Shown: positions 5,948 to 57,476, numbered from the stretch's first letter. The stretch is DNA of 64,000 bases from a bacterium (GCA_021824285.1 JAKAKZ010000003.1:571-64570); one strand, 5' to 3'. The notes: generated by a model from the sequence alone, not told the origin. Program-made: numbers and translations.

Positions 5948-5949
5948 TC

Positions 5950-23668: not shown

Positions 23669-23671
23669 TGG

Positions 23672-35808: not shown

Positions 35809-35880
35809 GACAGTCCCTTTTTCACCCAAAAGGGACAGTCCCTTTTTGGGTCAAAAGGGACTGTCCCCTAAAAGTCCTTC
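35809..35880. repeat. REP cluster (3 units of AAAGGGACWGTCCCTTTT) flanking RAYT
   Basis: aaggggacagtccctttt, aaaagggacagtcccttttt and aaaagggactgtccccta. The last unit overlaps the transposase stop. Confidence 0.7.
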
Positions 35881-41852: not shown

Positions 41853-41867
41853 ACAAAATAACTGTAC

Positions 41868-41892
41868 AACCCCGCCTAGCGCGGGTTTTTCC
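41868..41892 (+). terminator. terminator after small ORF
   Basis: aaccccgc-ctagc-gcgggtttttcc. Confidence 0.55.
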
Positions 41893-42030
41893 GTTTCCGT
41901 GCCTTGCGTTGTCGCTACGGCCACGCTCTGTTACAATTCGCGCATTATGCGGTTGTCTGTATCGCCTGTCCATGAGCGCCGTTGCGGCGGAATCGACCGT
42001 ACAGCTAAGCGGTTAAGGACCGTCGGCGCC

Positions 42031-44037
42031 ATGCTGCTGCTCATGGCCATTTTGCCGTCCGCGGCATGGGCGCAGGAGCGTCAGCCGAACGATCCGCTTT
42101 ACGGCGAGCAATGGTATCTGCACAAGATCGCCGCGGCGCAGGCTTGGGGCAGCACACTCGGTTTCGAAGGCGTGACGGTGGCGGTCATCGATTCCGGCGT
42201 CGACATCGACCATCCGGACCTTAAGGAGAATATCTGGACGAACCGCAACGAGATTCCCGGCAACGGCATCGATGATGACCTGAACGGCTACGTGGATGAC
42301 GTCCACGGCTGGGATTTCGTGGATAACGACAACGATCCGCGGCCGTCGCTCGTGAAGCCCTACAGCGTCATCGGCGCGAGTCACGGCACCGTTACGGCGA
42401 GCCTCATCGCGGCGCGCGGCGACAACGGCCGGGGACTCACGGGCGTGACTTGGCAGACTACGGTCATGCCGCTGCGGGTGCTGGATTCGAGCGGCGAGGG
42501 CAACTCGATGAGCGTGGTCCGCGCCGTCGAGTATGCGGTGAAGAACGGCGCCAAAGTGATTAACCTGGGCTTCGTCGGCGACGTCGGCGGCGATCTGCTG
42601 CGGATTGCCCTGCGCCGCGCCTATGACGCCGGCGTGACGGTCGTGGCCGCGGCCGGCAATGCCCCGGAGGGCGGGGTGGCCACCGACCTGGATGCGACAC
42701 CGCTTTATCCGGTCTGCTTCGACGCCAACGCAACCGACGATTTCGTGATCGGCGTCGCCGCCACGGACGAGTTCGACACCCTGACCGATTTCTCCAACTA
42801 CGGCGCCAAATGCGTGGACGTCTCCGCGCCCGGCAGCCGCATCTTGGCCGCCAAGCCCTACCGGCCGGAGAATCCGGACTTCAACAAGCTGTACGGCGGC
42901 TACTACAGCGGCACATCGGTGGCAACGCCCCTGGTTTCCGGCGCGGCCGCGTTGCTCCTCTCCATGAATCCGCGCCTGACCCCCGCGCAGATCCTGGCGC
43001 TCTTGGGTTCGACGGCGGCCAAGGTCACGGCCCCACGGACCGGCGCGGCCGGACGGGGACGCCTGGATGTCGGGGCGGCCGTGAGAGCACTCGAGGAACA
43101 GTTGGCCTCCAGGGCCCCGATGCAGTCCGCCGCTCCGGCAGCTGTACCCGGAGGCAAGATGATCGCGGTGGCGGCCGGTCCAGGCCGCGCGCCGGACATT
43201 CGGCTGTTTACCGCTGAAGGCCTGTTCATCCGCGAGTTCGCCGCTTTCCCGAAAGAGTTCCGGGGTGGCATTTCCCTGTCGGCCGGTGACTTGGACGGCA
43301 GCGGTTCTTATCAGTTGGCTGCCGGCGCCGGACCGGGCGGCCTGCCGCAAGTGCGGATTTTCGACCGAAACGGCAGCGAGTCCGGCACCTTTTTGGCCTT
43401 CGATTCCGGTTTCCGCGGCGGCGTCTCCGTGGCGGTGGGCGACGTCCAGGGCAAGGGACGTGCGGCAATCGTGGCCGCGGCCGGGCCGGGCGGCGGACCG
43501 CACGTGCGTATTTTCGACGCGCGCGGCGTGCCAATCGGCGGAGGATTCTTCGCCTTCGACAAGGGGTTCCGCGGCGGCCTGTCAGTGGGTGTGGGCGATC
43601 TGAACGGCGACGGCAAGGCGGAGATAGCCGCCGTCTCCGGAGCCGGTATGCCGGTCACGGTCCGGACTTTCGACCTGCGCGGCAATCTGCTCGGTTCGTT
43701 CCAGCCTTTCGGCAGCCGTGAACGGCGCGGCGCCAGGATTTCGGTTCAGGATATAGACGGCGACGGGACCGCCGAACTGCTCGTGACGCTCGGCGTCAAG
43801 AACGCCAAGCCGGTCGCATTCACGTCCGCCGGCCGCCGCCTCGGGGAATTCGACGGCGCCAAAGCGCTGTTTGCGGACAGCCGAAAATGGTCCTCCGGCA
43901 CGCCTGACGCCCTGACTTGGACCGCGGCCGGCAGCCCGCCAGCCGTGACCGTCTTTTCCTCGTCCGCGGCGCCGCTTCAGTTCCAGGCTTTCGAGAAGAA
44001 GTTCGCCGGCGGCGTGACGGCCGCGGTGCTGAAATGA
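42031..44037 (+). CDS. secreted subtilisin-like S8 serine peptidase with C-terminal FG-GAP repeats
   Basis: Signal peptide [16 protein letters not shown]. Catalytic triad motifs [13 protein letters not shown] (Asp), [12 protein letters not shown] (His) and [16 protein letters not shown] (Ser). The C-terminus has 5-6 repeats such as [27 protein letters not shown]. An alternative ATG lies at ~41947. Confidence 0.8.
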   Translation: [668 protein letters not shown]

Positions 44038-44044
44038 ATTCCAT

Positions 44045-44500
44045 ATGGGAGCCTGGTTTGGGCGACGGCGGAGCGACGGCACGCGGCTGTTCGGCCGCAG
44101 CGGTCGTCAGTTTCTGAAATTTTCCATAGTCGGAGCGGGCAATACGGTGCTGGATTTCGGCATCTACGTCGGCCTGACGCGCCTGACCGGCTTCTGGCGC
44201 GGGCATTACGTCTTGGCGGCCTGCGTCTCCTTCGCCTGCGCGGTGCTGTCGAGCTACCTCGTCAATACCTATTGGACGTTCCGTCAGCAGGGGACGGACC
44301 TGCGCCGCGCCGCCAAATTCTTCGCGGTCGCCACGGCCGGCCTCGGCTGGAACGCACTGATTATCTGGGGGGCCGTCCGGCTCGGGGCGTATGACCTCGC
44401 GGCCAAGGTCCTGGCGACGGGCGCGGTCCTGATCTGGAATTTTCTCCTGCAGAAACATTGGACGTTCCGGCCCGCCGCGCAGCCGGCGGAAATGGTATAA
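44045..44500 (+). CDS. GtrA-family membrane protein (polyprenyl-P-sugar translocase-like)
   Basis: FLKFSIVGAGNTVLDFGIYVGL...LIWNFLLQKHWTF. Four TM helices, typical GtrA-like. Confidence 0.7.
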   Translation: MGAWFGRRRSDGTRLFGRSGRQFLKFSIVGAGNTVLDFGIYVGLTRLTGFWRGHYVLAACVSFACAVLSSYLVNTYWTFRQQGTDLRRAAKFFAVATAGLGWNALIIWGAVRLGAYDLAAKVLATGAVLIWNFLLQKHWTFRPAAQPAEMV

Positions 44501-44502
44501 TA
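44493..44502 (+). promoter_or_regulatory. extended -10 TGGTATAAT
   Basis: aaaTGGTATAATatatagg, 29 nt upstream of the ATG at 44531. Confidence 0.4.
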
Positions 44503-44530
44503 TATAGGTAGACGAGAGCTTCTTATCCCT

Positions 44531-45565
44531 ATGGCCGCAGATCCCATTTTCGAGAAGAAAAACGTGCTGGTGACCGGCGGGGCCGGCTTCATCGGCTCAT
44601 TCCTGTGCGAGCGGCTGCTCAAGGACGCCCGCGTCATTTGCGTGGACAATTTCTCGACCTCCGCCCCGGCCAACATCGAGCTGCTGCTCAAGAACCCGGA
44701 TTTCGAGCTGCTGAAGATGGACATCGCCCAGCCGTTGGACCTCGAGAATTACGCCGAGCTGGAACGCTTCAAGATCAAGTTCCAGGGCATTCAGGAGATC
44801 TATCATCTCGCCTGTCCGACCTCGGCCAAGGATTTCGACAAGTTCCGCTATGCGACGCTCCTGGCCAATTCCGTCGGCCTGCGTAACGTGCTCGACCTGA
44901 CGGTCAAGTACAAGGCGCGGTTCTTCCATGCCTCCACATCGGTCATCTACGGACCGCGTCCGACCGACGGCCACCTGTTCAAGGAGGCGGAGTTCGGCGT
45001 CATGGACCACCTCTCGCCGCGCGCCTGCTACGACGAGGGCAAGCGCTGGGCCGAGACCATGGTCCAGACGTTCAAGAACATCTTCGGCATCGATGCCCGC
45101 ATCGCCCGCATTTTCCGAACTTTCGGGCCGCGCATGCCGCTCAATGACGGTCAGATGATTCCGGATTTCATCCTGGACGCGCTCGACGGCAAGGACCTGA
45201 CGATTTTCGGCGGTCAGGAATTCCGCACCTCGCTGGTCTATGTCACGGACGTGGTGGACGGCATCCTGCGGCTCATGGCGCTCGGCCGTGATCCCGGACC
45301 GGTGAATATCGGCAGCGACTATGATGTCCGACTTTCCGACGTGGCCAAACGCATCATTGAACTGACGGGATCGAAATCGCAGATCAAGTACGAGCAGCCC
45401 CTCCTGTTCATGAGTCAGCTCGGGTTGCCGGACCTGACCAAGGCCAAGGATGAGCTGGGCTGGTTCCCGCTGGTCTCGCTGGAGCAGGGACTCAAGAAGT
45501 CAATCGAGTACACGGTGGCGCATCGCGGTCTGCTGCAGCCGAGCTTTCGGCCGAACGGGTCCTGA
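44531..45565 (+). CDS. UDP-glucuronate decarboxylase (UDP-xylose synthase)-like SDR
   Basis: GGAGFIGSFLCERLL Rossmann motif, STSVIYG and an intact YDEGKRWAETM (YxxxK). Strong overall similarity to the UXS family. Confidence 0.75.
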   Translation: MAADPIFEKKNVLVTGGAGFIGSFLCERLLKDARVICVDNFSTSAPANIELLLKNPDFELLKMDIAQPLDLENYAELERFKIKFQGIQEIYHLACPTSAKDFDKFRYATLLANSVGLRNVLDLTVKYKARFFHASTSVIYGPRPTDGHLFKEAEFGVMDHLSPRACYDEGKRWAETMVQTFKNIFGIDARIARIFRTFGPRMPLNDGQMIPDFILDALDGKDLTIFGGQEFRTSLVYVTDVVDGILRLMALGRDPGPVNIGSDYDVRLSDVAKRIIELTGSKSQIKYEQPLLFMSQLGLPDLTKAKDELGWFPLVSLEQGLKKSIEYTVAHRGLLQPSFRPNGS

Positions 45566-45603
45566 CGGCCATTGGCCAGTTCATTTTATACTGACGTTAA
45601 GGA

Positions 45604-45631
45604 GAAAACCGCGCCGTCAGGCGCGGTTTTA
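45604..45631 (+). terminator. terminator between UXS paralogs
   Basis: aaccgcgcc-gtcag-gcgcggtt followed by tttt. Confidence 0.55.
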
Positions 45632-45749
45632 GCGTCCGCAGTCCGGTCCGCGAGCGCGTTCTTCGCTTAAGCTTGAAGTTAAGCGCTGTCCAGCCTATAA
45701 TAAGCGAAGGTTTACCGACGCGAATCAACGCGTATTTTCCGCATGTCTT

Positions 45750-46775
45750 ATGGCTGACCGGCCGCAAATCGGCAAGAAAAACATCATCGTCACCGGCGGG
45801 GCCGGATTCATCGGCTCCTTCCTCTGTGAGAAGCTGCTCAAGGAGGCGCGCGTCATCTGCATCGACGACTTCAGCACCTCGTCCGTGGCCAATATCGAGC
45901 ATCTGCTCAAGAACCCTGATTTCGAGCTGCTGCGGCACGATCTCGCCGAACCGCTGGACCTGCTGGCCCAGCCCGAGCTGGAGCGGTTCAAGATCGCCGC
46001 CTTGGGCGTCCAGGAAATCTACCATCTGGCCTGCCCGATGGTGGTGAAAAGCTTCATGGAAGAGCGCGAGCGCATCCTCGACGCCAATTCGGTGGTGATG
46101 CGCAACGTGCTCAAGCTGGCCGCCAAGTACCGCGCCAAATTCCTGCTGTCCTCCTCGTCCGTGGTCTATGGCGCGCGCCCTTCCGACCGCCACCAGTGCC
46201 GGGAAGAGGACGCGCACGCGGTCAGCCATCTGACTTCGCGCGCCTGCTATGACGAGGGCCGGCGCTGGTCCGAGACCATGGCCTTCACCTATAAGGAACT
46301 GCACGGCCTCGACATCCGCATCGCCCGCGTCTTCCGCACCTTCGGGCCGCGCATGCCGCTCGATGACGGGCACATGATTCCGGATTTCGTCAGAGCCGCG
46401 CTCGACGGCCGCGACGTGGTGGTGCATGGGGACGCAAAATTCCGTTCCTCCTTCTGTTACGTCACCGACGTGGTGGACGGGCTCGTCCGGCTGATGGGCC
46501 TGAACGCGGACCCCGGGCCGGTCAACCTCGGCAGCGACGAGGATTTCACGGTCAGCGACGTGGCCAAGCACATCGTCCGCCTGCTGGGCTCGGAATCGAA
46601 GATCGTCAGCGGTCCGCCGCTCGTCTTCCTGAGCGAGCTGGGCATTCCGGACCTGACCAGGGCGAAAGAGGCCCTGGGCTGGTTTCCGATCGTGCCGTTT
46701 TTGCAGGGGCTCAAGAAGACCATCGAATACTCATTGAGCGCGCGCGGGGAGGTGCGGCCGCTCAACGATGTCTGA
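45750..46775 (+). CDS. UXS-like SDR paralog with YxxxK Lys replaced by Arg (YDEGRRWSETM)
   Basis: ~55% identical to the 44531 gene. GGAGFIGSFLCEKLL and SSSVVYG are conserved, but the catalytic-dyad Lys position is Arg. It may be a variant or inactive enzyme. Confidence 0.65.
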   Translation: MADRPQIGKKNIIVTGGAGFIGSFLCEKLLKEARVICIDDFSTSSVANIEHLLKNPDFELLRHDLAEPLDLLAQPELERFKIAALGVQEIYHLACPMVVKSFMEERERILDANSVVMRNVLKLAAKYRAKFLLSSSSVVYGARPSDRHQCREEDAHAVSHLTSRACYDEGRRWSETMAFTYKELHGLDIRIARVFRTFGPRMPLDDGHMIPDFVRAALDGRDVVVHGDAKFRSSFCYVTDVVDGLVRLMGLNADPGPVNLGSDEDFTVSDVAKHIVRLLGSESKIVSGPPLVFLSELGIPDLTRAKEALGWFPIVPFLQGLKKTIEYSLSARGEVRPLNDV

Positions 46776-47445
46776 TATGAAGACGACGGTCGTCGTACCG
46801 GCGTTCAACGAGGCCCGGACAGTCGGCGGCGTGGTCCGCGGGCTGCGGCCGGTCTGCGGTCAGGTCATCGTCGTGGATGACGGGTCTTCAGACGGGACGG
46901 CTGCCGCGGCCGCTGCGGCGGGCGCGACGGTCCTGCGCCACGGGCTGAATCGCGGCCTGGGCGCGGCGCTCGGCACTGGCATTACGGCCGCGGTCCGGAG
47001 CGGTGCCGATATCGTGGTGACCTTCGACGCCGACGGCCAGCATAAGCCGGAAGACGTGTCCCGCATGGTGGAGCCCATTGCCGCCGGACGCGCCGACGCG
47101 GTGATCGGCAGCCGCCTGCTCGACCGGCGCAAGATGCCGCTGACGCGGCGGCTCGCCAACTGGATCGGCAACGCCCTGACTTGGTCGCTGTTCGGCCTGT
47201 GGGTCTCGGACAGTCAGTCCGGACTGCGCGCCTTCTCCCGCCAAGCCGCGACGGAGCTGGAGATCCGCACTGACCGCATGGAGGTCTCGTCAGAGATCGT
47301 CAAGGAAGTGCGGCGGCACGGCTGGCGGCTGGCGGAAACGCCCATCGAGCCGGTCTACACCGAGTATTCGCTGTCCAAGGGCCAGGGTTTTCTCGTCGGC
47401 CTGAAGACCGCCGGCAGGCTGGTCCTGCGGCGGCTCATGGGCTAG
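46768..47445 (+). CDS. GT2 family polyprenyl-phosphate glycosyltransferase (ArnC/GtrB/DPM1-like)
   Basis: TTVVVPAFNEARTV...VIVVDDGSSDGT...FDADGQHKP are DxD-type GT2 motifs, ~225 aa. Overlaps the upstream stop by 8 nt. Confidence 0.75.
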   Translation: MSDMKTTVVVPAFNEARTVGGVVRGLRPVCGQVIVVDDGSSDGTAAAAAAAGATVLRHGLNRGLGAALGTGITAAVRSGADIVVTFDADGQHKPEDVSRMVEPIAAGRADAVIGSRLLDRRKMPLTRRLANWIGNALTWSLFGLWVSDSQSGLRAFSRQAATELEIRTDRMEVSSEIVKEVRRHGWRLAETPIEPVYTEYSLSKGQGFLVGLKTAGRLVLRRLMG

Positions 47446-47451
47446 CGGACC

Positions 47452-47568
47452 GAGTTGAGAGTTAAAAGTTATTGTCCAAAACTTTCAACTTTTCCCGCCG
47501 TTGGCGGGACCCCGCCCCCTTTGACTAAAAATGAGTGGCGGGGAAACTTTCAACTTTCAACCATCGGA
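47452..47568. repeat. MITE-like element copy B (62-nt core 47486-47547 with inverted AGTTGA-type flanks)
   Basis: The core differs from copy A (12755-12816) at 2-3 positions. Flanks are gagttgagagttaaaagtt...aaactttcaac / tttcaactttcaacc. Confidence 0.6.
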
Positions 47569-47573
47569 TAGAT

Positions 47574-47918
47574 ATGACGGTTATCCAACTCCTAATCATC
47601 GCCTTCGCCCTGTTCGCGATCTCACGGACCGTCTTGCGGCTGCGCGACGGTTCCGTGGCCCTGGGCTGGGGAGTCTTTTGGCTGGTATTTTGGGGGGCGG
47701 TCACGGTGGTGACGGTCCTGCCGCAGACGGCTTCGGCCTTCGCCGCGCTTCTGGGCGTCGGCCGCGGCGCGGACGCGGTCATGTACCTGGCGCTTGTCGT
47801 CCTATACTATGTGGTGTTCCGCATCTTCGTGCGGTTGGAGAAGATCGAGCACGACATCACGCGTCTGGTACGCGACCGCGCCCTCAGCGACCTGCCGGAA
47901 AAGGAGGACCACCGCTGA
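47574..47918 (+). CDS. DUF2304-family small membrane protein
   Basis: MTVIQLLIIAFALFAISRTVLRLRDG, three TM helices. This family is often encoded next to GT2 genes. Confidence 0.55.
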   Translation: MTVIQLLIIAFALFAISRTVLRLRDGSVALGWGVFWLVFWGAVTVVTVLPQTASAFAALLGVGRGADAVMYLALVVLYYVVFRIFVRLEKIEHDITRLVRDRALSDLPEKEDHR

Positions 47919-47919
47919 T

Positions 47920-48231
47920 ATGTCCGCCATTCCGGAAAAGCCCACGCTGGCCGATTGGCAGCGTGTGATCAAGGAGACGGTCGCGGAAAAGCATTGGGCG
48001 GTCGATCCGAACGAGGTGTTCGTGCTGTTCGCCGAGGAGGTGGGGGAGCTGGCCAAGGAGCTGCGCAAAAAATGGAAGTTCGGCACGGCCGGAACGCAGG
48101 AGTCGGCGGCCGGCGAGCTTGCCGACGTCTTCATGTACCTGGCCGATCTGGCCAACCACTTTGAGGTCGACCTGGAGTCCGCGATCAGGCGGAAGATGGA
48201 GAAGAACGAGGGACGGACATGGGAGTTCTAA
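47920..48231 (+). CDS. MazG-like nucleotide pyrophosphohydrolase
   Basis: VFVLFAEEVGELAKELRK...ELADVFMYLADLANHF is the MazG EExxE/ExxD helical fold. The start overlaps the upstream stop (tgATATG). Confidence 0.6.
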   Translation: MSAIPEKPTLADWQRVIKETVAEKHWAVDPNEVFVLFAEEVGELAKELRKKWKFGTAGTQESAAGELADVFMYLADLANHFEVDLESAIRRKMEKNEGRTWEF

Positions 48232-48270
48232 TGGCGGCATGCGGCTAAGCGCACAGTTCAGATTTTCAGC

Positions 48271-49416
48271 ATGAACAAAAGAATCGCCATCGTCACACCG
48301 ACTTTCCCGCCCTATCGCGGCGGTATCGGTCGGGTTGCGGAAATGGACGCGGTCCAGCTCGCGGAGCTCGGCTATGTTGTTAACGTCTACGCGCCGAACC
48401 GCTCCGCTGTCGCGGCTCCTGGCGCACCCTTCGTGCTGCGCCGCCTGCCGGCCTGGTTCCGCATCGGCAATGCCGCCTTCACGCCGGCGGTCGGTCGGCT
48501 GCTCCACGAGAATGACGCGGTCATCCTGCATTACCCTTTCTACGGCGGCGCCGAGTTCTGCCTGCGCCGCGGCGCGGGACAGGGGAAGCTGCTTGTCACA
48601 TATCACATGGACACGGTCGGACGGGGGCTCAAGAGCGCCTTCTTCCGTTTCCATCGCGCCCTGGTGCTGCCGCGGCTCATCGCGGCGGCCGATAAGGTCA
48701 TCGTCACCTCCACGGACTATGCGCGCACCGGTTACCTCAAGCCGTTCATCGACAAGGTGCCGGAAAAATTCACGGAATTGCCGCCGTCCGTGGATATTCG
48801 GCGGTTCCGTCCCGGACCAAAGTCGGCTGGCCTGCTGACGCATCACGGTATCGCCAACGGCCGGCGCGTGATTGTGTTCTTAGGTGGCCTCGATAAGGCC
48901 CACTACTTCAAAGGCGTGAGCCGGCTGATCCTCGCCATGACCTCGCGCGCTTTGAGCGATGCCTGCCTGGTCATCGTCGGCGAAGGTTCGGAGCGCCGCG
49001 AGTTCCGCGCTTACGCCGACCGGCTGGGTCTCGGCAGCCGGGTCATCTTTGCTGGCGGCGTGGGCGACGAGGAGCTGCCAGCCTACCTGCGCTTGGGTGA
49101 TGTCTTCGCCTTCCCGTCGATTGACCGGTCCGAAGCTTTCGGCATCGCGGCTCTGGAGGCGCTCGCGAGCGGCATACCAGTCGTGGCGTCTGACCTGCCA
49201 GGCGTGCGCACCATCGTGCGCGACGAGGTGACCGGCTACCTGTCCGTGCCCGGCAGCGCCGCCTCCGTGTCCATGAGATTGGCCGCCCTGCTCGGCGATG
49301 AGGCGATACGGCGGCGCATGGGACAGGCCGGCCGCGAGCTGGCGACGAAAGGCTATTCCGACGAGGCGCGCCGCGAACGCTGGCGCGCCATCATGGGGGA
49401 AACCATCGGCACATGA
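48271..49416 (+). CDS. GT4 family glycosyltransferase
   Basis: MNKRIAIVTPTFPPYRGGIGRV... and C-terminal EAFGIAALEALASGIPVVASDLPGVRTIVRDEVTG. Confidence 0.8.
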   Translation: MNKRIAIVTPTFPPYRGGIGRVAEMDAVQLAELGYVVNVYAPNRSAVAAPGAPFVLRRLPAWFRIGNAAFTPAVGRLLHENDAVILHYPFYGGAEFCLRRGAGQGKLLVTYHMDTVGRGLKSAFFRFHRALVLPRLIAAADKVIVTSTDYARTGYLKPFIDKVPEKFTELPPSVDIRRFRPGPKSAGLLTHHGIANGRRVIVFLGGLDKAHYFKGVSRLILAMTSRALSDACLVIVGEGSERREFRAYADRLGLGSRVIFAGGVGDEELPAYLRLGDVFAFPSIDRSEAFGIAALEALASGIPVVASDLPGVRTIVRDEVTGYLSVPGSAASVSMRLAALLGDEAIRRRMGQAGRELATKGYSDEARRERWRAIMGETIGT

Positions 49417-50630
49417 GAATCTGCCTGATCAACAACCTGTACGGCGCGGCTGCGCGCGGCGGAGCCGAAAGGATCGTCGAGCTGGAAGCCGAGGCACTGG
49501 CTGCCCGCGGTCACGCCGTTTCGGTCGTGAGCGCCGTGCGTCCGGTCGACCTGCCGGGGGCAGTCTGCTCGCCGGACGGCTGCGGCCCGGCGGCGACCGA
49601 CCCGCGGGCCGGACGCGTGACGCACCGGCCTTTCGTGGCGCCCAACCTCTTCCCGTACTCGGAGCTCGGGCGGCACGGTCTGATGGCGCGTTTTATCTGG
49701 CATCTGCGGGACATGTTCAATTTTGCCGCAGCCCGACGGCTCGGCCGCCTGCTCGACGAGCTGCGGCCGGACGTCGTGCACACCCATAACCTGATGGGCG
49801 TCGGTTTCCTGACGCCGGCGCTGCTGCGACGCCGCAAGATCCGGCATGTGCATACGGTCCATGACGTGCAGCTGCTGCACCCATCGGGCCTCATGAGTCC
49901 GGCGGCGGCCGCGCATCCTTCGCCGGCAGCCCGCATCTATGAGCGGCTCATGGCCGCGCTCATGGGTTCGCCGGCGGTCGTGTTCTATCCCTCCGACTTC
50001 CTTTGTTCTCTGCATCAGACGGCGTGTTTTTTTCCGGATTCGCGGAAAACGGTCTTGCGCAATCCGGCTGCCCCGGCCAGCGATATTTCGCGACCGGTCC
50101 CTGCGGCCCGGAAATTGCTTTTTGTCGGCCAGTTGGAGCCGCACAAGGGGATTGGAACGGTCCTTGCGGCCTGGCGTCAAGCCGCACCGCCGGATGCCTT
50201 TTTGTCGGTCATTGGAAACGGTTCGCTTGCTGCGACGCTGCGGGCCGCGGCCGCCGATCTGCCGGCCGTCCGGTTCCTCGGACGATTGTCGTCGGCTGAA
50301 GTAGCACGGGAAATGGCCGATGCCTATGGCCTGCTGTTCGCGTCCGAAATCGTGGAAAATTCCCCGACCGTGATCCTGGAGGCCTTCAGTTCCGGATTGC
50401 CGACCATCGCCACGGCCGTCGGCGGCGTGCCAGAATTGGTGCGGGACGGACGGAACGGGTTATTGTTCCCGCCAGGAGATGCCGTCGTTTTGGCCATGAA
50501 AATAAGAGAACTGACGGACTTGCCGGCCAGCGCCTGGGAAGGGATGTCTGCGGCTGCCCGGGAGTCGTCGCGGCTCCATGACCCTGCTCGCCACATCGAG
50601 GTTTTGGAGGAGGCCTACCGCAGCGCCTGA
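49413..50630 (+). CDS. GT4 family glycosyltransferase
   Basis: MRICLINNLYGAAARGGAERIV... and C-terminal ENSPTVILEAFSSGLPTIATAVGGVPELVRDGRNG. A 4-nt start/stop overlap with the upstream gene. Confidence 0.8.
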   Translation: MRICLINNLYGAAARGGAERIVELEAEALAARGHAVSVVSAVRPVDLPGAVCSPDGCGPAATDPRAGRVTHRPFVAPNLFPYSELGRHGLMARFIWHLRDMFNFAAARRLGRLLDELRPDVVHTHNLMGVGFLTPALLRRRKIRHVHTVHDVQLLHPSGLMSPAAAAHPSPAARIYERLMAALMGSPAVVFYPSDFLCSLHQTACFFPDSRKTVLRNPAAPASDISRPVPAARKLLFVGQLEPHKGIGTVLAAWRQAAPPDAFLSVIGNGSLAATLRAAAADLPAVRFLGRLSSAEVAREMADAYGLLFASEIVENSPTVILEAFSSGLPTIATAVGGVPELVRDGRNGLLFPPGDAVVLAMKIRELTDLPASAWEGMSAAARESSRLHDPARHIEVLEEAYRSA

Positions 50631-50637
50631 AGTAAAG

Positions 50638-50672
50638 GGAAAAGACCGCCTTCAGGAGGCGGTCTTCTGTAT
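50638..50672. terminator. bidirectional terminator; the stop of convergent gene 50652-51335 lies in the loop
   Basis: aaagaccgcc-ttcaggag-gcggtctt, flanked by A-rich sequence on the left and T-rich on the right. Confidence 0.7.
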
Positions 50673-51335
50673 TTCTGTTGGCGCTTCGCCCAGTTGGGCG
50701 ACGATCCAGGTGCCGCGGTCAGCGGTCAGACGGGCGATGGGCACGGCGCTCGTCAGCAGTCCGACCAGCGGTTCCAGTTCGGCCACAGCGGCCAGATCCC
50801 CGATGCCGGCGTAAGCGATGCACCAGTAGAGCGCGCTGCACACCGATTCGCCGGCCGGGTTCGTCGGAATGCAGCTGAAGCCGTCATGGAACCTGAAACC
50901 GCAGGGTTCGCCGATGGCGCGACGCAGGAACAGGCCGATCGAGTCCGCGTACGGACCGCGGCCGAACCAGCCGTACCGTTCTTCGGTCTGGCGGCCCAGC
51001 CGTTGCCGATGCGCCAGCCAGAGCCTGACGGCCAGACTGTCATTAAAATTCAACTCTGGACCGTAGACGAACGGAGCATCCGGCTCGGTGAAATCCGCAA
51101 AGGGCTTAGGTGCCAGCTGGAGCCGCACTGCCTTGACCGTGCAGCCGGTCGCCGCGGCGATGGCGGCGGCGATGGCCTGCGTGTCGGGCGGCGGCGTGGC
51201 GTCCGCCGCGTTGAGCGATCCCGTCGCGGCCCGCTGCAGGACGGGCTCGACCAGGCGCAGGAGGCGCTCGATCAGATCACCAGGCACATCGTGGCGGCGG
51301 AGCGTTTCCGCGAGCTCATACCCAGATCTCGTCAT
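50652..51335 (-). CDS. hypothetical protein (227 aa)
   Basis: Clean ORF convergent with the GT4 gene. No recognisable motif. Confidence 0.45.
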   Translation of the reverse strand: MTRSGYELAETLRRHDVPGDLIERLLRLVEPVLQRAATGSLNAADATPPPDTQAIAAAIAAATGCTVKAVRLQLAPKPFADFTEPDAPFVYGPELNFNDSLAVRLWLAHRQRLGRQTEERYGWFGRGPYADSIGLFLRRAIGEPCGFRFHDGFSCIPTNPAGESVCSALYWCIAYAGIGDLAAVAELEPLVGLLTSAVPIARLTADRGTWIVAQLGEAPTEIQKTAS

Positions 51336-51471
51336 CCGTTTTCTCCAGGAAAAGGTCTAATTTGGCTAAGCCTGGCAGTTTTTGACGTATCAGTCAAGGG
51401 ATGGGTGATGATGGGCAAAACGAAAGGCGCGTCCGGATGACGCGCCGTTTTATGGATTATTCCGCCGCCGT

Positions 51472-53661
51472 TCATTTTCGCAGATATTTGAACACGTAGT
51501 CGCGGCCATCGGAGGTGACCCATTTGGCGTCTGCTTCCCGGCCGGCGCCGATGATGATTTTCTGGGCCTGGGACCAGTAGTGGTTCACGACGAAATAGAC
51601 CACGTCCGTGCCGAGGAAATCCATGGCCGCGAGCGCGCTGGCGCGGGAACCGTAAGAGGCGTTCATTTTTTCGAAGGCAGCATAGAGCGGACCGCCGGTC
51701 GGAACCGGATAATAGAAGACCGCTCCCGGACGTTCGGGATCGCGCGACATGAAGTAATGCCGGAAACCGAATTCGCGGATGGCGGCGGCGGACACGGCCT
51801 GGTCGGCCAGTACGGCATAAGTCCGTCCGCCGGCATCTGCGGTGATGCTCTGGACTGCCTCGACGTCTGCGGCGCTCGTGGACCAGCCGCGGCTGCTTTC
51901 GTACTTGTCGCGGCGCGGATAGGCGAGATAGCAGGAAGCGGTGATGACGGCGGCGCAGAGGAAAACCAGACCGGTCCGGAGGATGGCCGCCCGCCGTTCA
52001 AGGCGTTCCGCAAGCAGACCGGCGACATAGGCCACGGTCGGCGCCACGGACAGGAGAGCGAGATCGCGCATGCGGTCCGCGTAGAAAGCGCGTTCGTTGT
52101 CGACCAGGAAGTCGAACCGGACCACGGTCCGCAGCAGGACGAAATCAAGCGCGAAGACGAATAGGGCGACGGCATAGGCGACCGCATCCCGCGAGCGGCG
52201 GCGCAGGAGGAAGATGCCGAGCAGACCGACAGCGGTAAGGGCGGTGCCGCGCACCGCCTGCCAGGCGTAGGTGAAATCCAGGAGCGGCAGGAATCGGCGC
52301 GTGATGACGGCTTGGCTGCGGAGCGCGTCAAACAGCGTTCCGGCATCGCTGAGCGCGTTGCGGTCGAGCGTGACCGCGGCATCGGCCGAGAGCCGCGAAT
52401 TAATGATGAAGAGCGCCGGCACGGCCAGGGCGCCGGAAAGCGCCAGCAGGAACATGGCCAGACGGCGCGGTGTCGGGCTCCAATCGCGTACGGTCCGCGA
52501 GAGCAGGAGGGCGGCGGCGAAGAAGGCCAGGGGCACGCCGGCCAGCGGATGAACGGCGGCCGCGGCCGCGGTCAGGAGGAGGGCCGGCAACGGGGAAGCG
52601 CCGTCTTGGCCGACGGCAACCGGCAGGGCCAGGAAAAAACCGGCCAGCGCGAAGACGTCGGCCAGCCCCTGCGGCGTCGTCACGATGAACGGGGCCAGGG
52701 GAAAAACCAGCAGCGTCGAAACGGCGAAGGCGGCGCGACGCGGCGGCCAGCGGAAGCTCTGGCGCAGGGAACGGAAAGCGAGCGGCAAGACCGCGCCGAA
52801 GGCTACGGGCACGAGATAGCGGTCGATTTCCAGGACATGCCCGCCCAAGAGTTTGGCAATCGCCGTGACCACGGCATATTGGCCGATATAATAGACGGTT
52901 TTCGGCGTCATGACGCCAACGGCGAAAATCGCGCGCTCGGCGGATTGGTGGATGAACTGGTCGAACCCGAAGCCGACCGCGTAGACGGCTGCGGCAGCCA
53001 AGGTGATGACCGAACCGACGGCGACAAGCGGCACGATGGCGAATTCGCCCGCGTAGCCGGATACCGCCAGCCCGACGGCGAGCGCCGCAGCCATGAAGAC
53101 CACGGCGAAGAAGGCGCCCGGCACGGCATCCCATGGCGTGCGGATGGTGTCCGCGGTCGCGGCGCCGGAAAGCAGGGCGGCCGCGTAGACGCAGAGCGCG
53201 ACGGCGACGGCCGCGAGCGCCAGTCCGGTGAGGAAATGCCGCCGCCCGAGCCGCGATGGCTTGGTCTGATTGTCGCGGAAGAGCCCGACCGGGCGCGGCG
53301 GTGGCGGCAGCAATTCCGCGAACGGCAGCAGAGCCAGCAGGATGGCGACGCGGGCCGTATCCAGCCGGTCCGCCCAATAGATGAGAGCGCCAAGCACCGC
53401 GACGCCGGCAAAAGCCATCCAGGTGCCGAAGTAGGTCTGCCAAGCCACGGAAAGGTCGGGGAAGAGGCGGCGGCCCAAGATGGCACCCAGACCGAAAAGA
53501 TAAGCCAGGGCAAGAAGCGCGCGGACCGGAAGCGGTAACGGCAAAAGTACGGTCAGCGGACCGAGGATTGTTAAAATAAGCCCAAAACGGCTATAATTTC
53601 GGAGTAATCTGATGCTTCCCATGGGCCAAATTGTAGCACAAAAACGCGCCCTTTCGGCCAT
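51472..53661 (-). CDS. large polytopic membrane protein with C-terminal soluble domain (putative GT-C-type glycosyltransferase/polymerase)
   Basis: ~14 hydrophobic helices and a C-terminal ~150-aa soluble domain (…VFYYPVPTGGPLYAAFEK…). The start may be MGSIRLL at ~53622. Functional call is by architecture only. Confidence 0.45.
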   Translation of the reverse strand: MAERARFCATIWPMGSIRLLRNYSRFGLILTILGPLTVLLPLPLPVRALLALAYLFGLGAILGRRLFPDLSVAWQTYFGTWMAFAGVAVLGALIYWADRLDTARVAILLALLPFAELLPPPPRPVGLFRDNQTKPSRLGRRHFLTGLALAAVAVALCVYAAALLSGAATADTIRTPWDAVPGAFFAVVFMAAALAVGLAVSGYAGEFAIVPLVAVGSVITLAAAAVYAVGFGFDQFIHQSAERAIFAVGVMTPKTVYYIGQYAVVTAIAKLLGGHVLEIDRYLVPVAFGAVLPLAFRSLRQSFRWPPRRAAFAVSTLLVFPLAPFIVTTPQGLADVFALAGFFLALPVAVGQDGASPLPALLLTAAAAAVHPLAGVPLAFFAAALLLSRTVRDWSPTPRRLAMFLLALSGALAVPALFIINSRLSADAAVTLDRNALSDAGTLFDALRSQAVITRRFLPLLDFTYAWQAVRGTALTAVGLLGIFLLRRRSRDAVAYAVALFVFALDFVLLRTVVRFDFLVDNERAFYADRMRDLALLSVAPTVAYVAGLLAERLERRAAILRTGLVFLCAAVITASCYLAYPRRDKYESSRGWSTSAADVEAVQSITADAGGRTYAVLADQAVSAAAIREFGFRHYFMSRDPERPGAVFYYPVPTGGPLYAAFEKMNASYGSRASALAAMDFLGTDVVYFVVNHYWSQAQKIIIGAGREADAKWVTSDGRDYVFKYLRK

Positions 53662-54247
53662 TCCGGAGCCGATCTGGAATGATCACATCCGCGTGACTCG
53701 CGTGGACCGGTTTTTTGCGGCCACTTTCGGGCGCCTGATTCCGGCTTCCGTCAAGCCTAATCACCTGACGGTCCTCCGCATTTTCCTCGTACCGTTCGTG
53801 ATTCTGGCCCTGGCTCTCGAGTCCTACCGTTGGGCCGTGCCCCTGTTCTTCTTCGCGGCGCTGACGGATTGGTTCGACGGCGCTCTGGCCAGGACGCGCC
53901 GCTCCGTGACCGAATGGGGCATCGTCTATGATCCGGTCGCCGATAAGCTGCTCATCGGCGCGACTCTTTTCGTAATCGTGCTGCAGCACATGAACTACGC
54001 GCTTGGCCTGCTGCTTTTGGCGGTGGAAGCAGTGATTATCGCGGTCGGTTGGTGGCGCGTGCGCCGCGGTAAGGTGGAGCCGGCAAATCTCTGGGGCAAA
54101 TTCAAGATGGTGAGCGAAGTCGTCGGCATCACCGTGCTGCTCCTCGCCCTCTGGTTAGGCGTGGATATGCTGGTGCGCGTTTCGGCCGGCACGTTGGCCT
54201 TGGCCGTGGTGTTCGCGATCGTCAGCGTCCTTACGCGAATCAAATGA
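53612..54247 (+). CDS. CDP-alcohol phosphatidyltransferase family protein
   Basis: ALTDWFDGALARTRRSVTEWGIVYDPVADK matches D-x2-DG-x2-AR...G-x3-D-x3-D. Six TM helices. Confidence 0.75.
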   Translation: MLPMGQIVAQKRALSAIPEPIWNDHIRVTRVDRFFAATFGRLIPASVKPNHLTVLRIFLVPFVILALALESYRWAVPLFFFAALTDWFDGALARTRRSVTEWGIVYDPVADKLLIGATLFVIVLQHMNYALGLLLLAVEAVIIAVGWWRVRRGKVEPANLWGKFKMVSEVVGITVLLLALWLGVDMLVRVSAGTLALAVVFAIVSVLTRIK

Positions 54248-55917
54248 CCTCCGGTGTCCGCAAAATATGGTTGGGCGCGGCGGCGGTCGTGGTACTGGCC
54301 GCCGGTTATTCTTTTTTGGCCTGGGCCGCGCCGGCGCGGCCCATTTCGCCTGACGAGTCGGCGAACATGTTTTTCGCGCGTGAGGTCGCGGAGCGTTCGC
54401 GTCTGGCGGTACCGGAACCGCTGAACGCGCTGGTCGGCGGCATCATCCATCCGCGGAGCGTCCGTGCCGTCGGCGACCGGCTGCTGCCCGGCGGTTTCAT
54501 CGGCTGGCCCGTGGCTCTGGGAGCGCTGGGCAAGGCCATCGGCCTGGACGCCGTGCCGTATGCCGCAGCTCTCCTGGCGGCGCTCGCGGTCTTGGCTTGG
54601 GGGGCGCTCGTGAGCCGGTTTTTCGGCCGTGCCGTGGGTTTTGCCGCGGCCGCGCTCCTGGCGATCCAGCCGGTCTGGTGGTATTGGGCCTCCCGTCCTT
54701 ACATGCCGAATGCCGGCTTTCTCGTATTGCTGATCGGCAGTCTCTGGTTTGCCGTCGCCGCGGCCTTCCCGCGTCCGGGACGGTGGGCGCGCGTGCCTTT
54801 CTGGGCGGAAGCCGCCGTCGGCGGACTGCTTTTTGCCGTCACGTTCGCGGTCCGGCCGGCGGAGGCGCATTGGCTGGCCCTCGGCGGATTGCTGACAGTC
54901 GTCCTGTTCCGGCGCGCCTTGGATTGGCGGCGCCTTGCGGCTTTCCTCGCGGCGGCGGCTCTTGGCGCCTTGCCGTGGCTGGCGGAAAATTTCCATCTTT
55001 ACGGCAGTCTTCTCGCCACGGGCTACGGCCAAGACGCGCTCGGGATTCCGGTGGATGAGGCTCCGCAAGGCGGGGGAGCGCGTCTGCTCGGCGCCCTGCG
55101 GCCTTATCTTTTTCCGCTTGGCTTCGCGCCGCGTACGGCGTTGCAGCGTTTTTGGGAATATGCCGTTGCCGGCCAGCCGCTCTGGGCCGGGTTGGTGTTT
55201 GCCGCCTTCTTATTAGCATTTTGGCGCCTGCTTAATGCGGACCGCCGGTCGTCGCCTGATAGGAGAAATGCGTTGGGCGCAGAGCCCTATCGGGTAGCCG
55301 CCATCCTCGCCGCCGTTTCGTTCTGGCTGGTCCTATATTATGGCAGCTATGCGGTCCAGGATTTGCCGGCGGACGGCAGCGTGACGTTGGGGGTTTCGTA
55401 TTATCGGTACTGGTTGCCGATTTTCGTCGTCGGCACCGTTCCGGCGGCTTGGGCCGCGACCGTGCTGGGCGAACGGCTGGGCCGTTGGCGTCCGGCGGTC
55501 ATGTCCGTCTGTTACGGTCTGCTGGCCTTCGCTTCGTTCTGGCAGGTGTTCCATCAGCCGGGGAGCGGGCTCTTGGCCCTGCGCGCGACGCTTTCGCGCC
55601 AGGACGGCGAAGTGCAGGCCGTGCTGGCCGCTACGGAACCGGATGCGGTCATCGTCTGCGATCAGGCCGACAAGCTGCTCTTCCCGGAACGTCGCGTCAT
55701 CACGCCGCTGCGCAGCGAAGCGACCTACGAAGCGCTTGGCCGTCTGGCCGGTCGCGTGCCGCTCTATTACTACGGCATCAGCCTTCCGCCCCAGGACATC
55801 AGTTTTCTGCGTGATGTCCGCCTGGAACCGTTCGGCCTTGGAGTTGAGACGGTGCGGCCATTCCGGTTGGAGACGCTTTATCGCCTGCCGGTCGTAGGCC
55901 GGCCTGACGCTCTATGA
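54244..55917 (+). CDS. GT-C fold membrane glycosyltransferase-like protein (ArnT/PMT_2-like)
   Basis: N-terminal TM helix, a first-loop PDESANMFFAREVAER (DE motif) and ~11 TM helices with a C-terminal periplasmic domain. Confidence 0.5.
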   Translation: MTSGVRKIWLGAAAVVVLAAGYSFLAWAAPARPISPDESANMFFAREVAERSRLAVPEPLNALVGGIIHPRSVRAVGDRLLPGGFIGWPVALGALGKAIGLDAVPYAAALLAALAVLAWGALVSRFFGRAVGFAAAALLAIQPVWWYWASRPYMPNAGFLVLLIGSLWFAVAAAFPRPGRWARVPFWAEAAVGGLLFAVTFAVRPAEAHWLALGGLLTVVLFRRALDWRRLAAFLAAAALGALPWLAENFHLYGSLLATGYGQDALGIPVDEAPQGGGARLLGALRPYLFPLGFAPRTALQRFWEYAVAGQPLWAGLVFAAFLLAFWRLLNADRRSSPDRRNALGAEPYRVAAILAAVSFWLVLYYGSYAVQDLPADGSVTLGVSYYRYWLPIFVVGTVPAAWAATVLGERLGRWRPAVMSVCYGLLAFASFWQVFHQPGSGLLALRATLSRQDGEVQAVLAATEPDAVIVCDQADKLLFPERRVITPLRSEATYEALGRLAGRVPLYYYGISLPPQDISFLRDVRLEPFGLGVETVRPFRLETLYRLPVVGRPDAL

Positions 55918-57476
55918 ACGCCGATCTGCGCCTTTTTCGCCTTGTCGTCCGTTCGCTCGCCGCGCTCTCTGCCGCCGTGGTGCTCATCTGGCTGGCCGTC
56001 AAGGCGCTTGCGCCAGGCGGCGTCCTGTCGGTGACCGCCGACTTCATTCAACCGACGCCGTTTGTCAGCGAACCGATGCCTTCCGCCCGTCTTCTCTTTC
56101 CGGGCAATGGCGCGGCCGGCAACCGCGCGGAGATCATCGGCGAGCCGGTCTACGTAGACTTCACTCCGCCCCCCGGGTTCGATTCCGTGGACGTGGCCTT
56201 CCGCTATCGTGACGGCATTCAGCCTGACATCCGTATCGGTGCGCTCGTTTCCGGTCTCGACCAGTCCTTCGACGTGCGGCCGGCCGGCAATGCTCTTCTG
56301 GACGGCCTGCCTTGGAGCCGGATCGCGAGCGGCCGTTACTCGCTCTGGTCCAAGAATCGGAAATACGCGTCGTTCGATGCTTACCTGAATGACCCGCCGC
56401 CCCGCTCCCAGACTGCGGCGGTCGGTCGCGTGCCGCTGCCGCCCTTCCGGCTCCCCGGCTACGCGCCCTCCGCCGTCGCCCGGACCGTCACCCGATCGCT
56501 GCGCGGGCCGCAGCGGTTCTTGGCCTATATCAAGGGCGAGAAGTTGAATTTTTCATTCAGTATCCAGGATATGAACCGCGAGAGCGGCGCCGATCCGGTC
56601 GTCGTGGCGGTGTATCCGGCGGATGCTGCCGCGGTATCGGGACCGGTGCCGCCGCTGGCGAGCGCCGTCTTGCCGGACGATGGCGACGTCGCCGACGACC
56701 AAAAGCAGTCCGGACTGCGGACCGTGACAGTCAGCGCGTCGGGCTTGGCGGAAGGCGTCTACGCCGTAGAGTTCGGAGCGGACCAGGATATTTTCATCCG
56801 ATCATTCACTACGACCCAGCGCAAGGCGGTACTGGAAGGGCGGGCCTATTTGGGCGACCATGTCGGCTACAGCGACCAGTCGGCCGGGACGACCGTTTGG
56901 GTCGGCGGCCGGCGGATCACGGTCCGCACTGACCATCCGGAAGGGCTGCAGAACCTGACTGTCGCCGGTGCGCCGCTTGTCATTACGGAACTTCATCTCA
57001 AGGCAGCGGTTTCCCTGCCGAGTGCCGCTCCCGCCGCGGTCCGGACGCCGGCCGGCGATGTCCTGCTGGAGACCGACGGCGTCATCGCCCTGACCAAGGA
57101 CGATTATTTCGACCCGCTGCCCTTCGTGCCGGATTGGACCACCACCGCGGACGATTTGGAGCGGCGCGGCATCGTCGCCGCGGTCGCGGACTACGAGGCG
57201 CCGGAGACTGCAGGCGACGACCGTATCGCTCGGACTTCTTTCGACCTGCATTCGTTGGCGCGGACCGAGGACGGCGCCTATCGTTTTGTCCTGTCCGCCC
57301 CCGGTATCGACCTGTCTGGCCGCAGTCTTCCCGTAACCTCCGTGAGCTTCACCCTGCGCCGGCGTCCCGTCTCCTGGAGCAAGGCCTGGAGTCGCCTTCT
57401 TTCCGGCGGCAACGTCGGACCGGCGGCCGGCACAAGGGCGCCGGGCGCGGTTTCTTTCGGCGAGAACCCCAGATGA
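55914..57476 (+). CDS. hypothetical membrane-anchored extracytoplasmic protein (520 aa)
   Basis: N-terminal TM helix (LAALSAAVVLIWLAV). Translationally coupled to the upstream GT-C-like gene. Confidence 0.5.
   Translation: MNADLRLFRLVVRSLAALSAAVVLIWLAVKALAPGGVLSVTADFIQPTPFVSEPMPSARLLFPGNGAAGNRAEIIGEPVYVDFTPPPGFDSVDVAFRYRDGIQPDIRIGALVSGLDQSFDVRPAGNALLDGLPWSRIASGRYSLWSKNRKYASFDAYLNDPPPRSQTAAVGRVPLPPFRLPGYAPSAVARTVTRSLRGPQRFLAYIKGEKLNFSFSIQDMNRESGADPVVVAVYPADAAAVSGPVPPLASAVLPDDGDVADDQKQSGLRTVTVSASGLAEGVYAVEFGADQDIFIRSFTTTQRKAVLEGRAYLGDHVGYSDQSAGTTVWVGGRRITVRTDHPEGLQNLTVAGAPLVITELHLKAAVSLPSAAPAAVRTPAGDVLLETDGVIALTKDDYFDPLPFVPDWTTTADDLERRGIVAAVADYEAPETAGDDRIARTSFDLHSLARTEDGAYRFVLSAPGIDLSGRSLPVTSVSFTLRRRPVSWSKAWSRLLSGGNVGPAAGTRAPGAVSFGENPR

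Follow-up and report, generated by a model that had tools for sequence, protein, structure and literature searches.

The subject of this report is a gene block in a 64-kb stretch of bacterial DNA (GCA_021824285.1, JAKAKZ010000003.1:571-64570), referred to here as the window, within which all coordinates are counted unless a related locus is named. The block encodes a small GtrA-family membrane protein, two paralogous short-chain dehydrogenases/reductases (SDR-A and SDR-B) derived from UDP-xylose synthase (UXS), a family 2 glycosyltransferase (GT2) with a DUF2304 partner, two family 4 glycosyltransferases (GT4a and GT4b), a PgsA-like phosphatidyltransferase and two large membrane proteins predicted to have the GT-C glycosyltransferase fold. 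It appears to form the central part of a locus for an envelope glycan, one that Patescibacteria of the Uhrbacteria/Parcubacteria type have in common, and the probability of the whole stepwise scheme given below is placed at about 0.6.

In this scheme, the UXS-derived SDRs would act on the cytoplasmic side to convert a UDP-sugar, probably UDP-glucuronic acid (UDP-GlcA) or a derivative, into the donor sugar. The short GT2 and its DUF2304 partner would transfer this sugar to polyprenyl phosphate, in the manner of GacI/GacJ and PpgS/Rv3632, and GtrA would flip the lipid-linked product to the outer face of the membrane. There, an ArnT-like GT-C protein of 557 amino acids (aa), an AftA-like one of about 716 aa, or both, would pass the sugar to an acceptor. 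This acceptor is probably not a protein but a glycolipid or lipoglycan, for which the PgsA-like enzyme, GT4a and GT4b would do the priming.

Conservation and gene order

The window has a G+C content of about 63%. Contig DAIERG010000037.1 of assembly GCA_027346945.1 encodes a protein identical to SDR-A, and homologues of SDR-A, at 65-87% identity, are widespread in Patescibacteria. Because close homologues carry the names Candidatus Uhrbacteria, Parcubacteria or "Patescibacteria group" in their annotation, the window is assigned on sequence relationship to a metagenome-assembled genome of the Patescibacteria, or candidate phyla radiation (CPR). The genes of the block and those around it are as follows.

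41761-44037, plus strand: secreted subtilase (S8) with FG-GAP repeats (PF00082, 159 bits), a conserved upstream neighbor; its annotated start in GCA_027346945.1 corresponds to 42031
44045-44500, plus strand: GtrA-family small membrane protein, putative polyprenyl-phosphate-sugar flippase (PF04138, 93.1 bits)
44531-45565, plus strand: SDR-A, UXS-derived extended SDR (best structural database match human UXS1, 222 bits)
45750-46775, plus strand: SDR-B, paralogue of SDR-A (61% identical), with YxxxR in place of YxxxK
46768-47445, plus strand: short soluble-type GT2 of 225 aa, putative polyprenyl-phosphate glycosyltransferase of the PpgS/GacI type (PF00535, 84 bits)
47574-47918, plus strand: DUF2304 small membrane protein, putative GT2 activator of the GacJ/Rv3632 type (PF10066, 74.8 bits)
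47920-48231, plus strand: MazG-like nucleoside triphosphate pyrophosphohydrolase domain protein (PF03819, 29 bits)
48271-49416, plus strand: GT4a, predicted cytoplasmic, nucleotide-sugar-dependent glycosyltransferase (PF00534, 124 bits), conserved in position
49413-50630, plus strand: GT4b glycosyltransferase (PF13692/PF00534), overlapping GT4a by 4 nt, conserved in position
50652-51335, minus strand: 227-aa protein with no significant family match, weakly conserved in position (counterpart in locus L002, 30% identical)
51472-53661, minus strand: AftA-like membrane glycosyltransferase of GT-C fold, from its predicted structure
53612-54247, plus strand: CDP-alcohol phosphatidyltransferase, PgsA-like (PF01066, 103.6 bits), whose stop overlaps the next start
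54244-55917, plus strand: ArnT-like membrane glycosyltransferase of GT-C fold, 557 aa, from an AlphaFold (AF2) model compared by Foldseek
55914-57476, plus strand: p520, a 520-aa protein with an N-terminal transmembrane (TM) helix and a large extracytoplasmic part, no family match
9864-11690: TMEM260-like/DUF2723 protein (93 bits), 34 kb away and outside the conserved block

Family searches agree with a preliminary description of the stretch in identifying the GtrA, SDR, GT2, DUF2304, MazG-like and DUF2723 genes. The MazG-like gene, which had been counted in the module, is a real gene and not a conserved member of it, and the same holds for the DUF2723 gene on account of its distance.

Synteny was read by tblastn with the window proteins against 27 related loci, which were gathered, besides the window's own, by looking up three homologues and by scanning GTDB with each species represented by one genome; many of these loci end at contig ends or at the 10-kb flank limit. 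The recurring order begins with an optional gene related to UDP-glucose dehydrogenase (UGDH), followed by the S8/FG-GAP peptidase, GtrA, one or two copies of the SDR, GT2, DUF2304 and, optionally, a 353-aa GT2. It continues with GT4a, GT4b, the AftA-like GT-C on the minus strand, the PgsA-like gene, the ArnT-like GT-C and p520, and protein identities across the loci range from 30 to 73%. A GT2 lies within 10 kb of this type of SDR in 26 of the 27, DUF2304 is found downstream of it in 21, and the peptidase immediately precedes GtrA or the SDR in 19. GtrA stands between the peptidase and the SDR in 12 loci. The AftA-like GT-C is likewise present in 12, the ArnT-like one in 10, and the PgsA-like gene lies between the two GT-C genes in 10; p520 is conserved 3' of the ArnT-like gene in L004, L005, L007, L008 and L011.

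As a control, 137 loci anchored on other SDR/UXS genes were inspected. These held a GT2 of the same type in 14 cases and GtrA in one, and the GT2+DUF2304 pair in none. A metagenome scan with the SDR alignment, in which the generic GGAGFIG pattern was dominant and which returned almost only canonical UXS, served as a negative control only. Since the arrangement recurs among the related loci and its GT2+DUF2304 pair is missing from all of the controls, the block is a specific, selected unit, conserved far beyond chance.

Overlapping stop and start codons join the PgsA-like gene, the ArnT-like GT-C and p520, as they do GT4a and GT4b. One GT-C is thus probably translationally coupled to the PgsA-like gene, and the overlap of the p520 start with the GT-C stop suggests coupling there too. 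Terminator-like hairpins are found at 50640-50668 (bidirectional, 3' of GT4b), 51426-51446 and 61182, and promoter-like sites at 45673-45701, just before SDR-B, and 53568-53597. A search of the locus against Rfam returned no riboswitch or other RNA element.

The hairpins and the strand switch between GT2 and the two GT-C genes could mean that the genes are co-located for envelope synthesis and do not form one pathway, with the GT-C enzymes using other lipid-linked donors (for instance as polymerases or ligases) and the GT2/DUF2304 product feeding another transferase elsewhere. Four distant loci (L017, L022, L025 and L026) do keep SDR and GT2 with no GT-C within 10 kb, and the window has a further GT-C, the TMEM260-like one, together with a Wzy_C protein. 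The full order, including both GT-C genes, is nevertheless kept in at least 10 loci despite protein identities of 40-45%, and the characterized GT2+DUF2304 systems all feed a GT-C, which makes separate pathways quite improbable.

An SDR clade with a changed active site

Human UXS1 (EC 4.1.1.35; PDB 2B69/4GLL) is the nearest solved relative of both SDRs and their best match in the Protein Data Bank (PDB), at 222 bits (E 7e-65) and about 40% identity, against 106 bits for the next PDB family. To this extent, the reading of the pair as two UXS genes was well founded. The alignment of 119 close homologues to human UXS1 was then read at ten signature positions (79, 84, 118, 119, 120, 144, 147, 151, 176 and 277), at which SDR-A has T-F-T-S-V-R-Y-K-R-G and SDR-B has M-F-S-S-V-R-Y-R-R-G. 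The position of Glu120 is occupied by Val in both (Val in 108 homologues, Ile in six, Thr in four, Leu in one and Glu in none of the 119). That of Arg277 is Gly in both and Gly, Ala or Asn in the family, with Arg again in 0 of 119, and the flanking PD[IL]xKAK anchor aligns ungapped. Asn176 is replaced by Arg and Tyr84 by Phe in all 119 homologues, Ala79 is replaced by Thr or Met, and all family members checked have a 14-aa insertion after residue 68. Thr118 (Ser in SDR-B), Ser119, Arg144 and Tyr147 are retained along with the NAD motif, as is Lys151 for the most part; the catalytic triad reads T/Y/K in SDR-A and S/Y/R in SDR-B.

Among the altered residues, Glu120 and Arg277 are specific to decarboxylation in the characterized enzyme. 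Ser119, Glu120 and Arg277 distinguish UXS, in which Glu120 and Arg277 are invariant and Arg277 closes the active site; neither of these two is found in the 4-epimerases that avoid decarboxylation (PMC3438964). The E120A variant of human UXS1 has a kcat that is lowered about 100-fold and retains about 1% of the wild-type rate of UDP-xylose formation, and R277Q makes almost no UDP-xylose (PMC3438964). Asn176 and Tyr84 are likewise signature residues of UXS (Table 3, PMC12820599).

An exhaustive search of 1.84 billion cluster representatives separates the two types cleanly. Representatives at or below 45% identity mostly carry the full canonical signature, AYTSERYKNR, whereas those at or above 47% carry variants of [TM]F[ST]SVRYKRG. 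By this comparison, the SDR family is a sharply delimited sister clade that is derived from UXS and has a remodeled active site. The JGI pipelines label these homologues "UDP-glucuronate decarboxylase", a label that is probably wrong, since the clade does not have the decarboxylase residues. Lys151 is replaced by Arg in SDR-B and in about 10 others of the 119. Because such a protein is the only SDR copy in L004/L005 (P0086), the YxxxR type is probably functional and unlikely to be a dead paralogue.

One more distant Patescibacteria locus (L021:4465-11991) encodes the non-canonical SDR, MetK, a GalE-like SDR, a canonical UXS, a GT4 and a full-length UGDH. In this cluster the SDR thus stands beside a UXS with the AYTSERYKNR signature, and the two types are not redundant.

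Were both SDRs true UXS enzymes, GT2 would make polyprenyl-phosphate-xylose and a GT-C enzyme, possibly the TMEM260-like one, would O-glycosylate Ser/Thr-rich surface proteins. The wide lead of UXS1 over other solved structures and the JGI naming point in this direction, as do the residual UDP-xylose made by E120A (PMC3438964), the UGDH or UGDH-like genes of five related loci, and the presence in the window of secreted proteins, one with 22% Ser+Thr, and of the TMEM260-like gene. Set against this are the absence of both Glu120 and Arg277 from all 119 homologues, in which Asn176 and Tyr84 are changed as well, the near-total failure of R277Q to give product (PMC3438964), the full signature kept by most canonical representatives, and the separate canonical UXS of L021. 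The TMEM260-like gene also lies outside the conserved block, and the GT-C genes within the block flank a phosphatidyltransferase. A true UXS pair is judged distinctly unlikely, and with a non-canonical signature throughout the family the argument from adjacent UXS genes to a pentose is weak and, in that form, unsupported.

The pattern of what is kept and what is lost could also be that of an enzyme that leaves the carboxylate in place or alters stereochemistry alone, as a 4-epimerase or 4-reductase acting on UDP-GlcA, UDP-xylose or a UDP-4-keto-pentose within the same module, in which case the lipid donor would be polyprenyl-phosphate-galacturonic acid, polyprenyl-phosphate-L-arabinose or similar. 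Rhizobium RgtE/RgtA-D offers an analogue, beside ArnC/ArnT. The catalytic Tyr, Lys and Thr/Ser, the carboxylate-contacting Ser119 and Arg144 are all kept, the decarboxylation-specific Glu120 and Arg277 are lost, and it is exactly these two that UDP-GlcA 4-epimerases do without (PMC3438964). The company of a canonical UXS, UGDH and a GalE-like SDR in L021 fits as well. The replacements here are Val and Gly, though, compared with the Ser and Thr reported for the epimerases (PMC3438964); no characterized enzyme with this signature was found, and in the majority of loci neither a UXS nor a full-length UGDH is close by. We consider this reading rather unlikely.

A predicted polyprenyl-phosphate sugar module

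GT2 has as its top NCBIfam match PpgS, the mycobacterial polyprenyl-phosphate-N-acetylgalactosamine synthase (190.7 bits), followed by AglJ (115.7 bits) and then a dolichyl-phosphate-hexose transferase; its best PDB matches are ArnC and dolichyl-phosphate-mannose synthase (DPMS). At 225 aa it is short compared with its solved relatives (322-374 aa), and it is without C-terminal TM helices. DUF2304 proteins are known partners of short GT2s of this kind, and here such a gene lies 129 nt 3' of GT2. Its match to PF10066 (gathering cutoff 25.5 bits) covers profile positions 1-103 of 106, and its frame (47535/47574) differs from that of the longest open reading frame (ORF) in the interval.

GtrA matches PF04138 (cutoff 26.1 bits) over the whole profile, positions 1-117 of 117, and scores only 20 bits against the NCBIfam gtrA_1 subfamily, which has a cutoff of 50. 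Its role as a polyprenyl-phosphate-sugar flippase is putative, drawn from family and context.

At the position taken in this genome alone by the MazG-like gene, most relatives carry a 353-aa membrane-type GT2 (Glyco_tranf_2_3). A tblastn search of the 64-kb window with the relatives' 353-aa GT2 found no counterpart; it has apparently been lost from the locus in this genome, with the MazG-like gene (47920-48231) in its slot.

Two membrane proteins of predicted GT-C fold

Searches of Pfam, NCBIfam and PDB sequences, even with profiles, gave no match for either of the large membrane proteins. Faint matches appear in homologues only, namely STT3/PMT_2 on P0123, a homologue of the ArnT-like protein, and DUF6541 (20 bits) on L004. 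Both candidates were therefore modeled with AlphaFold from homologue alignments and their folds compared by Foldseek. The model of the 557-aa protein (AF2 pLDDT 79, pTM 0.82) is closest to ArnT (5f15; E 1.2e-8, TM-score 0.55), and then to ALG9/ALG12, STT3, AglB and AftB. An invariant S-P-D-E (35-38), with the acidic pair D37-E38, directly follows its first TM helix, and the stretch after that helix is the usual place of the GT-C acidic motif. The model of the second protein is closest to AftA. Its homologues share an invariant R174, W177 and GFGFDxFxH, with the invariant Asp, D234, within this last motif, later in the sequence. By their predicted structures, both large membrane proteins are GT-C-fold enzymes, and their earlier designation as GT-C-like is borne out at the level of fold (ArnT, AftA), though not by any sequence family.

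The AftA-like protein is probably about 716 aa long, because Met14 of the long ORF (53622) is where the alignment with its homologues begins; GCA_027346945.1 annotates 668 aa from 53478. Depending on the choice of start, its 5' end and that of the PgsA-like gene overlap or abut (53661/53622/53478 against 53612/53621), and the long form of the GT-C ORF takes in a promoter-like site for the PgsA-like gene.

The acceptor

The two GT-C genes flank the PgsA-like gene, and two cytoplasmic GT4 genes always precede them. The phosphatidyltransferase scores 98.9 bits against the pgsA model TIGR00560 (cutoff 109.1) and 24 bits against the PI-synthase-like (phosphatidylinositol synthase-like) model. Given that the GT-C genes share their surroundings with a CDP-alcohol phosphatidyltransferase gene and the GT4 pair, a lipid-anchored glycan is favored as the acceptor. 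It would fit better than the protein acceptor that had been envisaged, for which we find no support here. In its architecture, the combination of genes resembles those for the glycolipid-anchored polymers of Gram-positive bacteria.

The donor sugar

Genes for UGDH or UGDH-like proteins are found in five of the related loci (L003, L006, L011, L014 and L021). The enzyme of L021 is complete. The other four loci have a conserved protein of 267-275 aa just upstream of the S8 peptidase gene, located as follows.

L003:6587-7390: UGDH-like protein
L006:~440-1258: UGDH-like protein
L011:~5480-6303: UGDH-like protein
L014:~5430-6235: UGDH-like protein

In this short form the NAD-binding domain, the central domain and the GGSCFPKD motif with its catalytic Cys are present, and the C-terminal UDP-binding domain (PF03720) is missing. 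Because genes of this kind are found alongside the locus in these five relatives, a donor sugar derived from UDP-GlcA, either a uronate or a pentose, is plausible; xylose in particular is not supported. A pentose would not be uncommon in such a bacterial module, as had been supposed, since 4-amino-4-deoxy-L-arabinose (L-Ara4N), D-arabinofuranose (D-Araf) and ribofuranose/xylofuranose (Ribf/Xylf) are all known there.

The SDR might instead act after GT2, on a polyprenyl-phosphate-linked sugar, with the short UGDH-like proteins, which have no UDP-binding domain, likewise working on a non-nucleotide substrate. An SDR that epimerizes a lipid-linked pentose has precedent in the proposals for Citrobacter youngae ORF13 (undecaprenyl-phosphate-Ribf to undecaprenyl-phosphate-Xylf) and DprE2, the truncated form with its intact GGSCFPKD motif is conserved in four loci, and the SDR has a remodeled active site with a family-specific insertion. 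It is also without a membrane segment and retains overall, at about 40% identity, the nucleotide-sugar scaffold of UXS, both of which count against such a role, as does the lack of any UGDH-like gene in the 64-kb window. This idea is purely speculative and highly improbable.

A further possibility is that the clade, with its signature xF[ST]SVRYKRG, has been neofunctionalized to make an unusual donor sugar, such as a 4-keto-pentose, L-arabinose or a uronate epimer, or to work directly on the lipid-linked sugar. Its product would pass via GT2/DUF2304, GtrA and the two GT-C enzymes into a phosphatidyl-anchored lipoglycan that would be near-universal in Patescibacteria of the Parcubacteria/Uhrbacteria type. 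This is put forward tentatively, and as doubtful.

Relation to known systems

The sequence of GT2 synthesis, GtrA flipping and GT-C transfer that the preliminary description proposed is right in kind, as judged from family matches, predicted folds and synteny within Patescibacteria. Its analogy with GtrA/GtrB/GtrC and ArnC/ArnT follows the same logic, in that a GT2 works on polyprenyl phosphate, a small flippase follows and a GT-C acts outside; a GtrA-family protein is present here, and the closest structural counterparts of GT2 and one GT-C are ArnC and ArnT, respectively. In contrast to the short GT2 of this locus, paired with DUF2304, GtrB and ArnC have C-terminal TM helices of their own, and the acceptors of these systems are O antigen and lipid A. 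The closest characterized systems, by analogy, are instead GacI/GacJ/GacK/GacL and PpgS/Rv3632/Rv3779, in which GT2 and DUF2304 are split, with GtrA taking the place of the flippase here. The mechanism as such is already well known, and the group A carbohydrate (GAC) system and mycobacterial galactosamine (GalN) addition provide experimental precedent for the combination of GT2, DUF2304, flippase and GT-C.

GacI/GacJ/GacK/GacL add the N-acetylglucosamine (GlcNAc) side chain of the group A carbohydrate in Streptococcus pyogenes. As in the locus described here, a short GT2 makes the polyprenyl-phosphate sugar, an adjacent DUF2304 protein (GacJ) binds and activates it, and a flippase and a GT-C finish the extracytoplasmic transfer. 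However, the flippase there is Wzx-like, GlcNAc comes directly from UDP-GlcNAc with no dedicated SDR, and the acceptor is polyrhamnose, whereas the Patescibacteria locus has GtrA, two GT-C genes and a PgsA-like gene. In Mycobacterium tuberculosis, PpgS (Rv3631), Rv3632, Rv3634c and Rv3779 place GalN on arabinogalactan. This system has a small membrane partner, Rv3632, which stimulates PpgS, an SDR that prepares the UDP-sugar, and a GT-C, Rv3779, which uses the polyprenyl-phosphate sugar and passes it to arabinan. Its SDR is a 4-epimerase of the GalE type, compared with a UXS-derived one here, and the Patescibacteria locus includes GtrA as the candidate flippase.

With the mycobacterial pathway for phosphatidylinositol mannosides, lipomannan and lipoarabinomannan (PIM/LM/LAM; PgsA1, PimA/PimB', Ppm1, PimE/Mpt/Emb/Aft), the locus shares a phosphatidyltransferase, two GT4 enzymes, a polyprenyl-phosphate-sugar synthase and several GT-C enzymes, one of which is here most like AftA. 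The likeness is one of architecture only, and the phosphatidyltransferase is PgsA-like, not PI-synthase-like.

In the pentofuranose systems, formed by PPPRS, a MATE protein and a GT136 GT-C, a GT-C also adds a pentose extracytoplasmically from polyprenyl phosphate and an auxiliary SDR sets the identity of the sugar; the donor there arises from phosphoribosyl pyrophosphate (PRPP) via a UbiA-type PPPRS and is flipped by MATE, in contrast to the UDP-sugar-type GT2 and GtrA found here (Kelly et al. 2024). A PRPP-based system of this kind was considered and rejected, as no PPPRS or MATE was found among the family-searched genes of 41.7-61.2 kb. Modification of lipopolysaccharide (LPS) of the ArnT type was likewise rejected on general grounds, as Patescibacteria are generally regarded as lacking LPS.

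No paper emerged from literature searches that combined Patescibacteria/CPR with either UDP-glucuronate decarboxylase or UDP-xylose, and a search on GT-C and the cell envelope gave none that mentions Patescibacteria. Nor was any paper found on the Patescibacteria form of the module and its conservation, on the non-canonical UXS-like clade or on the truncated UGDH-like partner. These three are what is new here.

Points that weigh against the proposed scheme

Several observations reduce confidence in the envelope-glycan scheme. With the decarboxylase residues of UXS missing from the SDRs, their reaction cannot be read from homology, and the match of GT2 to PpgS, at 190.7 bits, falls below the equivalog cutoff of 370 for that UDP-GalNAc-using enzyme, so it does not give the donor specificity. 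Searches of the 64-kb window by tblastn with the short UGDH-like and the full-length UGDH proteins found no counterpart and hence no source of UDP-GlcA there. GtrA is not present in several of the more distant loci (L016, L017, L021 and L022). What the analysis establishes is which genes are present, their synteny, the predicted GT-C folds and the altered active site of the SDRs. That the two GT-C enzymes use the product of this GT2 is a link which we infer, as we do each catalytic step, the sugar and the acceptor; the evidence for a lipid anchor is gene adjacency, and the biochemical roles of all the proteins of the locus are predictions.

Other features of the window

Downstream of p520 lie genes for a small membrane protein, a HIT protein, a true RmlB (444 bits) and an M32 carboxypeptidase. 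A second glycan group occupies 20756-24994, with a membrane protein like Wzy_C/O-antigen ligase at 20756-22294 and two further GT4 genes at 22385-23635 (plus strand) and 23672-24994 (minus strand). Near it are a GHL15 and FG-GAP protein (27170-29215, minus strand) and a DUF11-like surface protein. A Y1 transposase gene of the IS200/IS605 type (about 35868-36341, minus strand; PF01797 in the source-contig annotation, L001:1338-1811) lies among genes for large secreted proteins. A tmRNA gene at 12297-12693 on the plus strand is matched full-length by Rfam RF00023 (126.7 bits) and is not reported by ARAGORN.

Significance

Patescibacteria are abundant, mostly uncultured, host-dependent and ultra-small organisms, and their cell-surface chemistry is almost unknown. 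Few multi-gene blocks of the sampled lineage seem better conserved than this locus, with an SDR that is 65-75% identical across many genomes, and its product is probably a core envelope glycoconjugate that matters for host attachment. About a dozen genes now form a defined set with which to identify the polymer. Should the tentative view of a neofunctionalized SDR prove true, this polymer would be a so far undescribed component of the envelope, functionally comparable to LM/LAM or lipoteichoic acid.

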